A stretch of DNA of 64,000 nt from an uncultured Gammaproteobacteria bacterium (GTDB lineage Bacteria > Patescibacteriota > Microgenomatia > CAYXHB01 > CAZYTL01): contig CAZYTL010000009.1 in assembly GCA_964650355.1 (NCBI GenBank), positions 413 to 64,412 of the forward strand, in the 5' to 3' direction. Both the position numbers and the translations under genes were made by a program. The notes under the pieces are model-generated. The model did no database searches. It was given only the letters and a program-made list of their open reading frames with translations, and was not told where the DNA came from. This document shows positions 20,499 through 24,340 of this stretch, piece after piece (the stretch's first letter is position 1; every line of letters starts with the position of its first letter).

Positions 20499-20528
20499 TA
20501 TGAAAGTAATTGTGGATAATGACACTTC
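20499..20528 (-). repeat. ~30-nt duplicate of the secA 3' end (encodes KCHYPQLLS*), downstream of the PlsC-like gene
   Basis: TTGTGGATAATGACACTT is identical at 20508-20525 and 21512-21529, and the flanks are similar; the reverse complement reads aag tgt cat tat cca caa tta ctt tca taa. Confidence 0.6.
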
Positions 20529-20547
20529 TGAAACAGGGAGTTAAATT

Positions 20548-21357
20548 TTACTTATCATTTTTCCCGAATGATATACTTGCGTATCTACCTTCTATTTCTT
20601 GCGTGAGGATCTTTCTAGAAATATTTCCGTCTAGCCCATCAGCCACACCTCTAAGTGAGATGGGGGGGCTGACATGAACTGTGACATTTTTTGGCGTAAA
20701 GAGTTTATTTCCGTAATTTCCGTCTCCATCAAAAGACACAAATTGGATATATGCGTCTTCGCCTTTTCTAAGTTCGGTAAGTACTTTTTCAGACAAAAAT
20801 CCAATTCCACTAGACCACCTTTTATCTTCAGGTTCAAAAACTGCGACATTATCACCTGATGCAACGAATTTCGCGGCGATAATGAGCGCTACCCTGTTTC
20901 TCTTTATCATCTCTAGTAAGCTGCCAGAGGGTAAGGCTTTTTCAATCATCTTACCACCTATTTTATCTATACGCTTCAGCCCATCATACCGACTTTGGTC
21001 GTATTTTATTCCAACCGGTATCATATGTGGTTTCAGATAATCTGGAACAATGGCTAAAAATTCCTCTCTTCCTATCATTCTCAAACGCGAAGCGTTTTCG
21101 CCTGCTGTTGCTACTAAAACAAAAGGGTCTAGTCGCCAAGAGGGATGGTTAGCAACGAAAATGGTTCTACCTTCATTTAATGTTCCTTCGACATTTATAC
21201 GGGTTTTAAGTCTACCAAGGACAATTTTACTTATCTCGTTTAAAGATTTATCTTTAAGTCTTGAAGTTGCCCAGCCTGAAATCCTAATGATGGTAGGAGA
21301 ATACCGATCTGTAACCTGGTGCTGTAAGTTTAATAAACTTTTTTCTACCTCGGACAT
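20548..21357 (-). CDS. Lysophospholipid (1-acylglycerol-3-phosphate) acyltransferase, PlsC family
   Basis: HX4D motif FVANHPSWRLDP and downstream acyltransferase blocks. Confidence 0.7.
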   Translation of the reverse strand: MSEVEKSLLNLQHQVTDRYSPTIIRISGWATSRLKDKSLNEISKIVLGRLKTRINVEGTLNEGRTIFVANHPSWRLDPFVLVATAGENASRLRMIGREEFLAIVPDYLKPHMIPVGIKYDQSRYDGLKRIDKIGGKMIEKALPSGSLLEMIKRNRVALIIAAKFVASGDNVAVFEPEDKRWSSGIGFLSEKVLTELRKGEDAYIQFVSFDGDGNYGNKLFTPKNVTVHVSPPISLRGVADGLDGNISRKILTQEIEGRYASISFGKNDK

Positions 21358-21499
21358 TAAATTGTTTTTACAGTTATTCTTAGTTATTTGTTTTTAAATT
21401 AACCTAAATACAGGTGATATTTAAGTCAGAGGCAGATTATGATTTATTTATGAGGGCAGTTGGGGATAGTGGCCCGGCCAGAGGCGGATCATTAACTCT

Positions 21500-24340
21500 T
21501 TATGATGGAAGTTGTGGATAATGACACTTTTTCCACTTTTTGCCTGAGCCGCACCAGCAGGGGTCGTTGCGGCCGATTTTTTTGGTGACCACGGTTTGCT
21601 GGGAACCTTTGTGTGAAGTTTTGCTTGGGTCTGAGGAGGCTCTGACCCCGGACATGGCAGAAGCAAAGGATGAGAGATCGGTTTTCGGTTGTCTGCGGCC
21701 GGTTTCCGGTTGCTTTTTAACAGGACCTTGACTAGGCTGTGCGGGGGCTTGTTCTGCTTGTTCGGCAAGATCAAGGCTTTCGTGTACGGTTTGGGCTTGG
21801 TCAAGAGAGAGGGCAGGTTGAGGGATCTGCAATTGGATTTGGGTGCGGAGAATGCGGCGGATGAGTTGATAATCAATCTGGCTCATCAAGCGTTCAAACA
21901 TGGAAAAAGCTTCTTGTTTGTATTCATTTAAGGGATCTCTTTGGCCGTAACCTCTTAAACCAATACCTTCCCGCAAATCATCAATAGCATCCAGGTGGTC
22001 CATCCACAAACGGTCAATGACGGAACGCTGGGTGGCGCGTTCCATCTGGCGCATGATTTCAGGAGAGACTTCTTTTTCTTTTTCTTCGTAGGCCTTTTCG
22101 ACTTGACTGAACAGCTCTTGTTTGACTTCTTGAGCTTCGGGTTGGGATTCGATGAGGTCGCGAACTTGGTCCATTTGTTGATGGTCCATGGGCATCAGTT
22201 CGGCCACGGTGGTAACTAGCTGGTCGATTTCTTTGGCCACAAATCCCTGCGGGGCATAAAGGGTGACCATTTGGTCGATTTCGTTTTGGGCTTTTTCTAG
22301 TATTTCGGGTTTGAATTCAACTTCCTCCAAGGTGCGTTGACGCAAATCATAGATGATCTCCCGTTGTTTGTTCATGACGTCATCGTATTCAACTAAGTGT
22401 TTGCGCTGGTCAAAATGGAAGCCTTCGACTTTAACCTGAGCCTGTTCGATTGATTTAGAGACCAGGTTTGATTCAATGGGTTGATCTTCCGGCAGTTTCA
22501 AAGCAGTCATCAGGTTGGCGATTTGTTCTCCGCCGAACAGGCGCATGATGTCGTCGTTTAAAGCCACGTAAAAGCGGCTGGCGCCGTGGTCTCCCTGTCT
22601 GCCTGACCGGCCGCGGAGCTGGTTGTCAATCCGACGGGATTCGTGGCGCTCAGTGCCGACTACCATTAATCCACCGGCTTCGATGACCTGGTCGTGTTTT
22701 TTTTGCCATTGCTGGAGATCTTTTTCGTATTGGGTTTGGGCTTTTTTGGTTTTGTCCTTAGGTTGCTCTGGTTTGGCCCCTCCCAAGACGATATCCACTC
22801 CCCGACCGGCAATATTGGTAGCCACGGTCACGGCTCCGGGTGCGCCTGCCTGGGCGATGATGGCGGCTTCTTTTTCATGGTTTTTAGCGTTTAATACCTG
22901 GTGCGGGACGCCCTTGTGTTTGAGTAATTCAGCAACGATTTCGTTTTTCTCAATTGACGTGGTGCCGACCAACACGGGCTGGCCTTTCTGGTGGAGTTCC
23001 GCTATTTGATTAGCAATAGCCCCGTATTTGGCCCGGGTGGTTTTGTAAACGACATCCGCATTGTCCTGGCGGACTACTGGTTTGTTGGTGGGGACGACCA
23101 CCACTTCCAATTCATAAATTTTGCGAAATTCTTCGGCTTCGGTGGCGGCAGTACCGGTCATGCCGGCCAGTTTCTGGTACATGCGGAAGTAATTCTGCAG
23201 TGAGATGGTGGCTAAAGTGCGGGATTCCTGTTGGATTTTGACTCCTTCTTTGGCCTCGACGGCCTGATGCATGCCTTCTGACCAACGCCGGCCAGGCATA
23301 AGCCTGCCGGTAAATTCATCAACGATCACGATTTGGTCGTCTTTGACAATGTATTCACGGTCTCGTAAATACAAGGTTTTTGCTCGCAAGGCATTTTCTA
23401 TGTGGTGAATAGTATCAAAATCTTTTTCGTAAAGGTTGTCTACTCCCAGAATTTTTTCCACTTTGCGAATGCCATGTTCGGTTAAGGCCGCGGATTTAAG
23501 TTTTTCATCTATGGTGTAGTCCGTATCACTGGAAAGACGGTTAACCAGTTGGTTGAATTGCAGGTATTTGTCAGTGGGTTCGGTATCAGGCATGGAAATA
23601 ATCAACGGAGTGCGAGCTTCGTCAACGAGAATGGAATCGACCTCGTCAACAATGGCAAAGTGGTGACCACGTTGGTTTTGGCGTTCAGGAGATTGGGCCA
23701 TGTTGTCGCGCAGGTAATCGAACCCGAATTCGGTATTGGTACCGTAGATGATGTCAGTTTCGTAAGCTTCTTTTCTGGTCACGGCTTTCAGGTGGCGCAG
23801 GCGTTCGTCATCGTGTTCCGGCTCAGTGTATTCAGGATCATAAAGCAAACCTCTGAGTCCCGGATCCTGGATGACTACGGCCACGGACATGCCCAGTAAA
23901 TTTAATACGGGACCGTTCCAACCAGCGTCCCGGCGGGCCAGGTAGTCGTTGACGGTCACCAAATGGCAGCCATTACCCTTAAGGGCATTCAAATACAAGG
24001 CCGGGATGGCAGAAAAAGTTTTACCTTCCCCTGTTTTCTGTTCAGCGATTTTGCCTTCATGAAGAGCAATGGCGGCAATCATCTGCACGTCGTACTGTCG
24101 GATGTCAATGGTTCTGTGGGAGGCTTCCCGGACCAAAGCAAAGGCTTCCGGCAGAATGTCGTCCAAGCTATCCCCTCTTTCCAGACGAAGTTTAAAGTCG
24201 GCTGTTTGGGCGGCAAAATCTTCCTGTTTGAGTTTTTCCATTTGCGGCTCCAGAGCATTGATTTGCTCCACGATTTTTTGCAACCGATTGAGTTCTTTTT
24301 GGTTGGTATCCAGTAATTTTTTAATGATATCGAATGCCAT
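21500..24340 (-). CDS. secA: Preprotein translocase ATPase SecA
   Basis: 946 aa; DEAD-motor motifs ([30 protein letters not shown]) and C-terminal zinc-binding tail [13 protein letters not shown]. Confidence 0.95.
   Translation of the reverse strand: [946 protein letters not shown]

Follow-up and report, generated by a model that had tools for sequence, protein, structure and literature searches.

The DNA considered here is a 64-kb stretch (contig CAZYTL010000009.1), called the window below, in which the end of secA was found in three copies: the live gene end and two displaced copies behind it, with a gene for an acyltransferase-like protein of 269 aa lying between the two displaced copies. 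The three copies are non-random, the arrangement recurs at other secA loci in a strand-specific and position-specific manner, the cargo varies between conserved flanks, and no recombinase was found in cis. We read this arrangement as attachment-site (att) type integration at the secA terminus, in which replacement ends stack up and the site-specific activity is supplied in trans; the probability of this reading is put at roughly 0.55. An earlier note on this DNA had proposed an insertion at the secA 3' end with a replacement terminus, and the recurrence, the variable cargo and the flanks shared with a related locus (L014) support that proposal. Other loci are likewise given by handles, and pseudo-terminus or fossil denotes an untranslated, displaced copy of the secA end downstream of the live end.

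The target gene, secA (21500-24340, minus strand, 946 aa), matches the Pfam families SecA_DEAD, P-loop_SecA, SecA_SW, SecA_PP_bind and SEC-C and ends in the SEC-C zinc-finger motif. Its live terminus, copy A (21500-21529, minus strand, attL-like), reads AAG TGT CAT TAT CCA CAA CTT CCA TCA TAA and encodes KCHYPQLPS*. The distal pseudo-terminus, copy C (20498-20527, minus strand, attR-like), reads AAG TGT CAT TAT CCA CAA TTA CTT TCA TAA, corresponding to KCHYPQLLS*, and begins 20 nt past the stop of the cargo open reading frame (ORF). Copies A and C agree at 26 of 30 positions in register (87% over 30 nt) and contain an exact 18-mer; they share AAGTGTCATTATCCACAA exactly, differ in two adjacent codons (CTT CCA versus TTA CTT) and have TCATAA in common again. 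The duplicate of the secA end 20 nt past the stop of the PlsC-like gene, with its 18-nt exact core, was thus described correctly in the earlier note, and its two-copy picture stands for A and C. That picture was incomplete, as a third copy had been missed.

This third copy, B (21448-21474, minus strand), is a displaced pseudo-terminus reading GGC CAC TAT CCC CAA CTG CCC TCA TAA, which corresponds to GHYPQLPS* out of frame with secA. The repeat search places it at 21448-21477, at 67% in register and 22 nt past the secA stop. Copies A and B differ at four coding positions (CAT/CAC, CCA/CCC, CTT/CTG and CCA/CCC), all of them synonymous third-position changes. The spacer of 25 nt between the secA stop and copy B (21475-21499, minus strand) carries the post-stop motif AATGATCCGCCTCTGG, which recurs behind copy B and also behind the stop codon of secA in L037. 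Together, A and B form tandem units of about 52 nt, each made of a terminus and a post-stop tail of about 22-28 nt containing AATRATCYGCCTCTG, and these units are about 76% identical over their first 46 positions in our own alignment. The presence of the third copy implies two or more events at this locus, or else a single event in which an older relic was brought in.

Behind copy B, a leader (21358-21447, minus strand) containing a hairpin (ACUUAAAUAUCACCUGUAUUUAGGU) precedes the cargo ORF (20548-21357, minus strand, 269 aa), which is co-oriented with secA and starts 142 nt downstream of it. Between the two genes, the minus strand showed neither a promoter-like nor a terminator-like motif, so that transcription probably runs on from secA into the acyltransferase-like cargo. 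Beyond copy C lies a convergent gene, orf262 (19699-20487, plus strand, 262 aa), a homologue of which, with 50% identity, occupies the same convergent position in L014. This gene is probably the native downstream neighbour of secA and marks the far edge of the inserted block, and copy C is probably the original secA end. No Rfam family was found in 20400-21620, the only matches elsewhere in the window being tRNAs.

The 18-mer TTGTGGATAATGACACTT occurs at exactly two places in the 64 kb (20510-20527 in copy C and 21512-21529 in copy A), and only one further match, on the opposite strand at 11812, was found when up to three mismatches were allowed. None of 100 dinucleotide shuffles equalled this match count, the expected number being 0.05. 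The earlier note had asked whether the repeat occurs elsewhere; in the window it is confined to these two sites and it is not a genome-wide repeat. A Logan assembly made independently (L001) agrees base for base with window positions 19829-22610, which makes an assembly artefact unlikely.

The best matches to the SecA protein were found in Microgenomates, a group of the candidate phyla radiation (CPR; Patescibacteria); their identity was 58-60% among species-representative genomes and reached 75% among proteins from metagenomes. Comparison with related secA 3' regions, as the earlier note had suggested, showed that the four closest relatives (L119-L122, 68-75% SecA identity) partly keep the upstream synteny (NUDIX, orf179 and murB) and have differing genes behind secA, none of which is the 269-aa gene. 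No pseudo-terminus was found in the flank examined of these four loci, and in L119 a convergent gene begins 7 nt past the secA stop. As different genes follow secA in each relative, the downstream side is hypervariable in this clade. In L014 and L172, secA is followed by one co-oriented ORF of 900 aa, a degenerate pseudo-terminus (RKCQYPERD...) and the convergent orf262 homologue, whose stop lies 17-40 nt beyond the pseudo-terminus. The window and L014 therefore have both flanks and the position of the fossil in common while the cargo is different. Of the comparisons made, this one comes nearest to the check proposed in the earlier note, and it favours insertion at the secA end ahead of a native secA-orf262 junction. 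A DUF5674 gene was also observed directly behind secA in L007 (4091-4369) and L035 (2727-3047). The DUF5674 gene of the window (18682-19053, minus strand) lies 2.4 kb past secA, beyond the PlsC-like gene, orf262 and orf162, and its displacement is a further sign of repeated filling behind secA.

To survey secA ends, all frames were translated in 80 genome loci and 80 metagenome loci, and recurrence was counted in the 94 non-redundant secA loci with a CHYP-type end using the peptide pattern C[HC]YP..stop, the downstream same-strand DNA amounting to 437 kb. A total of seventeen pseudo-termini were found downstream of secA on the same strand. The opposite strand of that DNA had none, and of the two strands upstream of secA only the opposite one had any, with a single occurrence. 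The downstream same-strand geometry is present in about a fifth of Microgenomates secA loci, and direct repeats of which one is the functional gene end were seen in at least 16 loci besides the window. The core CAYTAYCC was observed within 150 nt of the secA stop in eight of the 94 loci, compared with about 0.7 expected from the background rate. The pattern spans distant Microgenomates groups of candidate-phylum rank (Collier-, Levyi-, Shapiro-, Gottesman- and Amesbacteria), with differing tails.

A cruder nucleotide test, in which a run of at least 14 nt from the last 48 nt of a gene had to be repeated downstream, was positive for 5 of 78 secA genes and for 11 of 1104 other genes (opposite-strand controls: 1/78 and 2/1104). 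Terminal repeats are enriched at secA, and a few other genes show them too. Runs of 15-32 nt at genes other than secA were seen in L008, L004, L059 and L150, some of which are probably tandem paralogues; at L008:10787, a 21-nt run is repeated 118 nt downstream and could be a terminal duplication at another gene.

The fossil-bracketed blocks range from 0.9 to 6.4 kb and hold mostly co-oriented accessory genes, with about 23 of 30 cargo ORFs facing the same way as secA. Blocks of about 1 kb were found in L187 (0.9 kb, Fic) and L141 (1 kb, where the displaced 25-codon end is still intact), followed in size by L150 and L188 (1.4 kb each), L032 (2.7 kb, three ORFs), L034 (2.8 kb, two ORFs and an internal site), L146 (4.3 kb, five co-oriented genes), L130 (6 kb) and L125 (6.4 kb). 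In L029, three to four copies are arranged around a DUF433/DUF5615 module and a BrnT/CopG-antitoxin module. The kinds of cargo include toxin-antitoxin modules, Fic, dCTP deaminases, glycosyltransferases and Cas12d with Cas1 and an array. In most cases the last fossil is followed by a convergent gene (the window, L032, L034, L125, L130, L150, L187 and L188), as secA itself is in the unoccupied L119, and this is what would be expected of a native neighbour.

Two of these blocks are described further here. The DNA of L125 from the secA stop to SQKCHYPDV* (6453-12880) contains a complete type V-D CRISPR-Cas locus, in which Cas12d (PADLOC, E 1.9e-124), Cas1 (Pfam, 2.8e-18), a histidine phosphatase and an array of about 12 units with a period of about 43 nt were identified. 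The block of L146 (381-4672) encodes an LD-carboxypeptidase, a protein with an alanyl-tRNA synthetase (AlaRS)-like domain, an S-adenosylmethionine (SAM) methyltransferase and two tandem dCTP-deaminase-like genes, all co-oriented; these genes possibly form a small cluster for defence or for the modification of nucleotides or peptides.

An identical core is often common to the live end and the displaced one, measuring 18 nt in the window, 21 nt in L146, 25 nt in L150, 24 nt in L187, 16 nt in L034, 14 nt in L130 (including an unusual Ala codon) and 12 nt in L032. The shared core always covers the His-Tyr codons and has unrelated sequence on both sides. Tails that encode the same peptide show synonymous-only differences between copies A and B of the window, in L159 (4 of 4) and in L141 (about 12 over about 20 codons), which implies that these ends evolved as working secA termini in separate genomes and were later juxtaposed. 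A different kind of SecA zinc-finger end was observed in L017 (4860-5020) and L023 (4460-4620) (CxCGA..GKPYKYKKCGLINAPYH..*; CGLINAPYH..), followed by a shared spacer of about 85-110 nt with a CCUCC...GGAGG hairpin and then by a remnant of the common secA end; in L017 the reading frame meets a stop before this remnant. In these two loci, a replacement seems to have affected the zinc-finger end as a whole.

The distal copies of L146, L150, L187, L188 and L029 have a common non-coding left flank of about 33 nt, which together with the core makes an element of about 50 nt (TGYGGTAYCCTATTTnnCTAGCAYTTCAARAAATGCCAYTAYCC). In a profile search, this arm-plus-core element was found in eight species-level loci, with up to three copies per array, only downstream of secA and only on the same strand; the copies include the internal site of L034 and a second site in L225, where two of the three downstream pseudo-termini match the element. 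The left part of the element opens with TGY GGT WYC, as would fit decayed zinc-finger codons for Cys-Gly-Ser. Since several copies in one array have the same decayed middle, the element has propagated as a unit. The 20-nt left flank of copy C in the window shows a resemblance (ATTTAACT...TTCAGAAG) to the arm of this element.

The cargo behind secA differs between two Amesbacteria species whose upstream synteny is identical. In one of them, L225 contains Fic, BrnT-CopG and a 276-aa ORF with a site after each, while in the other a five-gene block is followed by the element, of which L207 holds a degenerate version of the L211 copy. In most strains of one Amesbacteria species, a 125-nt piece with one site has been deleted between TTCAG microrepeats, as seen from L225 and L216.

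Taken together, these observations are in our view best explained by a mechanism in which the DNA for the final zinc-finger residues of SecA (AAR TGY CAY TAY CC...) would serve as the attachment site in Microgenomates. Incoming DNA would bring a short copy of this site, consisting of a non-coding left arm, the shared core and a replacement 'HYPxxx-stop' tail. Recombination within the core would then reseal secA with the incoming tail (copy A) and place the cargo behind it, while the former terminus would be displaced downstream as an untranslated fossil (copy C) beside the native orf262. Repeated events would stack cassettes and fossils. Given the att-type anatomy with a substitute end, A and C are taken as the junctions of the latest event, with the PlsC-like gene as its presumed cargo. 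Copy B would be an older terminus that was either carried inside the incoming piece or left by a separate event without cargo. We infer that the joining is site-specific and carried out by a recombinase acting in trans, from the host or from another element, that circular intermediates are involved, and that the cargo is co-transcribed with secA.

A number of observations weigh against this reading. No integrase, resolvase or other recombinase was seen in the 64-kb window or in any of about 12 cargo blocks. Searches with XerD, lambda Int, Cre and gamma-delta resolvase as tblastn and phmmer queries were negative for the window, where the earlier note had seen no integrase and all matches had E > 0.3, and for the Microgenomates cargo blocks. 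Likewise, Pfam annotation of 27 cargo or adjacent proteins revealed no recombinase other than an rve-type transposase outside the block of L150, and pattern scans of IMG/VR for attP-like free copies gave chance-level matches only, none with a secA-like context. No strain polymorphism between filled and empty sites was observed in two Amesbacteria species (24 contigs each), where only small deletions and scaffold gaps were seen, and no cassette was found to be the same in two genomes, the BrnT/CopG modules of L029 and L216, from two genera, being only 28-35% identical. Although copy C is the top match of the window to the pseudo-terminus profile, this match covers the core only (E 0.5). The duplicated segment starts at different points in different loci, anywhere between the His codon and 25 codons upstream of it (HYP, KCHYP, FKKCHYP, GSGKK and IGRND), and such a variable boundary is unlike a single site-specific system. 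Finally, a short-range class has only 20-110 nt between the secA stop and the fossil (L013, L019, L020, L037, L159, L160, L167 and copy B of the window), and 'cassettes' of this size are hard to explain as circular elements.

Short spacers of this kind were seen to contain GC-rich hairpins in L160 (5420-5470), L167 (997-1055), L019 (6031-6070), L020 (8721-8746) and L029 (8827-8875). These hairpins are of two recurring kinds, CCUCCGAAG...CGAAGGAGG and CCUGAGC...GUCGAAGGA. The L019 spacer alone folds significantly better than shuffled sequence (z -4.1), with the terminus pairing with GGAUAA in the spacer, and L167 does so weakly.

Three further observations concern possible enzymes. In L150, an IS481-like DDE transposase (1728-2672, minus strand; rve_3 and helix-turn-helix domains) ends 5 nt inside the distal pseudo-terminus, on its outer side, and may be an unrelated insertion sequence or a hint to what moves DNA here. 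A large serine recombinase located 4.6 kb downstream of secA in L171 was rejected as a candidate, that secA having an end of a different type (CHGK*) and no repeat. In L044 (4600-5864), on a GC-rich Chloroflexi-like contig, secA (CHGRRKKE...) is followed after about 260 nt by a C-terminal fragment resembling IntI/XerD and then by small ORFs resembling toxin-antitoxin genes, with 32-nt inverted repeats as bounds. It is the only IntI-like fragment that was seen, and it resembles what is left of an integron, located by coincidence behind the secA of an unrelated lineage. A coarse regular-expression screen for tyrosine recombinases gave no match and was too crude to count.

The alternative that survives best dispenses with a dedicated recombinase. 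Here the conserved SEC-C codons would act as portable homology for RecA-mediated exchange with the DNA of relatives, such that a single crossover with a circularised fragment duplicates the terminus and double crossovers with an existing pseudo-terminus swap the cargo. The variable left boundaries, awkward for integration at a defined site, are what would be expected if the donor secA fragments differed in length, and the failure to find a recombinase in the searched window and loci calls for no missing enzyme under this alternative. It also accommodates the replacement tails, which resemble genuine secA ends of other lineages with synonymous-only divergence, the post-stop motifs common to the window units and L037, and the different zinc-finger end that stands ahead of the common-end remnant in L017 and L023. 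However, RecA usually needs at least as much homology as the identical cores offer (11-25 nt), or more, to work efficiently, circularising the transforming DNA would be an ad hoc step, and terminal repeats are far rarer at other conserved genes (11 of 1104) than at secA (5 of 78). Moreover, a non-coding arm of about 35 nt that accompanies unrelated cargo in eight species and is repeated in arrays points to a propagated site rather than to new pieces of the secA of each recipient. On balance, we regard RecA exchange as rather unlikely to be the explanation.

We consider it improbable, and more so than RecA exchange, that the pseudo-termini are inert relics of one ancient local duplication or illegitimate join, inherited vertically while the cargo came and went by ordinary gene flux. 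The arm element could indeed be a single ancient fossil in related Amesbacteria-like genomes, pseudo-termini do decay or vanish by simple deletion (the 125 nt of L225 versus L216; the degenerate L207), and no cassette was caught moving. A fossil of this kind would not, however, remain perfectly identical over 18-25 nt, down to synonymous sites and unusual codons, when its flanks have fully diverged, nor would it produce arrays of three to four copies parted by single genes (L029 and L225) or occur in distant Microgenomates groups with differing tails, with the 25-codon end of L141 still intact. The last explanation, chance similarity or a metagenome assembly artefact, is effectively refuted: the window does come from a metagenome-assembled genome and repeats can mislead assemblers, but none of the 100 shuffles matched the observation, a second assembler gave the identical sequence, dozens of independent assemblies show the pattern, and the repeats are shorter than typical assembly k-mers.

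The integration proposed for the secA terminus can be compared with several known systems. Phage 21, e14 and NC-SV integrate within icd of E. coli (PMC12803456). Prophages and islands at gene 3' ends resemble the secA loci in having a live end and a displaced fossil repeat with an identical core and unrelated flanks. They differ in carrying their own tyrosine integrase beside the att site and in measuring tens of kb, whereas the secA blocks are 0.9-6.4 kb or tens of nt long and none was found to have an integrase. Elements at icd supply a substitute gene end with mainly silent changes, and SGI1 in trmE and ICESt1/3 in fda behave similarly.

By analogy, the closest parallel to the secA arrays is the tandem arrays of staphylococcal cassette chromosome (SCC) and pseudo-SCC elements at the 3' end of rlmH (orfX). 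In staphylococci these elements stack in tandem with repeats that include the terminal codons of the gene, and many SCC-type units are without recombinase genes and rely on cassette chromosome recombinases (Ccr) in trans. In that system the enzymes, the Ccr serine recombinases, have been identified and are encoded by some of its members, whereas no candidate was found for the secA arrays; lineage, target and repeat differ as well.

The likeness to integrons, and to clusters of attC sites lacking integron integrases (CALIN), lies in co-oriented, apparently promoterless cassettes of one or a few genes, rich in toxin-antitoxin genes, with a site of about 50 nt and a fixed point of entry. In contrast to these, the secA loci are without intI, the site is a decayed direct copy of a coding sequence and not an attC palindrome, and the entry point is inside an essential gene. 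Sites of the secA type were not found elsewhere in the window or on the other strand. An attC-like nature of the sites was rejected, as the folding of distal sites showed no consistent significant structure in comparison with shuffles (z = -0.12 in the window, -0.98 in L146 and +0.19 in L150). Integrative mobile elements exploiting Xer (IMEX) and pdif modules are similar in being recombinase-less modules that are bounded by short copies of a host site and mobilised by an enzyme of the host, provided that the trans-acting enzyme is encoded by the host. A Xer/dif-type site was rejected by inspection, since the repeat contains no dif-like dyad (two 11-nt arms with a 6-8-nt spacer); the cumulative GC-skew curve rises monotonically over 15-28 kb with no switch at the locus.

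Two other kinds of explanation for the repeats were discarded. A variable-repeat and template-repeat pair of a diversity-generating retroelement was rejected, as there is no reverse-transcriptase-like ORF in the block, the repeats are 27-30 nt long and their differences are synonymous (C/T and A/C/G) and not adenine-specific. Translational bypass or alternative protein ends were dropped because the duplicated tails encode the same peptide.

A wider and more tentative proposal, which we hold to be possible and less probable than integration as such, is that Microgenomates possess an integron-like platform for gene capture in which the integrase lies neither in nor beside the cassettes. The SEC-C end of secA would be the point of entry, each cassette would carry a site of about 50 nt derived from a decayed secA end, a recombinase encoded by the host or otherwise supplied would act in trans, and read-through from secA would express the cassettes. 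Accessory and defence genes, up to entire Cas12d loci, would in this way be passed between these reduced genomes.

The cargo protein of the window had been assigned to the PlsC family in the earlier note, which is borne out by fold and distant homology only; the Pfam cut-off is not reached: the match to PF01553 (Acyltransferase) scores 17.9 bits (E = 0.0029), under the cut-off of 23. A word-indexed search of 5.8 billion proteins found no relative other than the protein itself. Among 1.84 billion representatives, eight matches with E <= 1e-3 were obtained, namely the protein itself and seven weak relatives (E 1.7e-8 to 6e-4). Four of the seven relatives match PF01553, three of them above 23 bits (P0123 at 24.9, P0127 at 32.5 and P0128 at 32.2) and the fourth slightly under it. 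Motif I of the 269-aa protein is NHPSWRLD (H-x5-D), one residue longer than the HX4D (NHx4D) rule, while in the relatives the motif is a residue shorter and aligns as NHP-x3-D/E-P. The alignment shows no variation at N70, H71 and P72. The closest homologue, P0122 (42% identity), is encoded away from secA and without a pseudo-terminus.

An AlphaFold2 (AF2) model built on the seven-row alignment has a mean predicted local distance difference test (pLDDT) value of 75.8 and a predicted template modelling (pTM) score of 0.79. The only PDB matches in Foldseek with E <= 1e-3 were PlsC of T. maritima (5kym, 2e-5) and a plastidial glycerol-3-phosphate acyltransferase (GPAT; 8ia1, 9e-5), with modest TM scores of 0.41-0.49. 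PADLOC gave no defence match for this protein. The cargo is a divergent, nearly orphan protein with a PlsC/GPAT-like fold, and a putative acyltransferase at most.

A second site in the window, to which the earlier note had attributed a comparable footprint, proved to be real. The first 25 nt of a tRNA-Gly(GCC) gene (12636-12708, minus strand) are repeated at 100% identity at 12998-13022, and a further 21 nt are repeated at 81% at 12969-12989. The start of the tRNA is thus duplicated around an ORF of 97 aa (12699-12992) of the GIY-YIG family (Pfam, 5.4e-15), which takes up the roughly 290 nt that separate the intact tRNA from its partial upstream copy. On its sequence features, this site is a putative second insert in the window that is bracketed by a duplicated piece of a gene.

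In the open-access full-text literature, we found no account in which secA serves as an attachment site or in which Patescibacteria have such arrays. The principle of insertion at a gene end is known, and what is new is the target, which is the zinc finger of secA, the recurrence across the lineage, the small recombinase-less cassettes with a site made of a decayed gene end, and the presence of a Cas12d-Cas1-array locus among the cargo. For annotation, the displaced ends account for spurious short ORFs and 'SEC-C-like' fragments behind secA. Mobile elements that can be recognised as such are scarce in the tiny genomes of the CPR or Patescibacteria, and little is understood of the routes by which these bacteria gain accessory and defence genes. 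The stacked fossil termini would record the order in which genes arrived, and the secA-end site offers a handle on recently acquired genes in any Microgenomates assembly as well as on the missing recombinase. The secA end is also a candidate safe-harbour site for the engineering of uncultivated Microgenomates.

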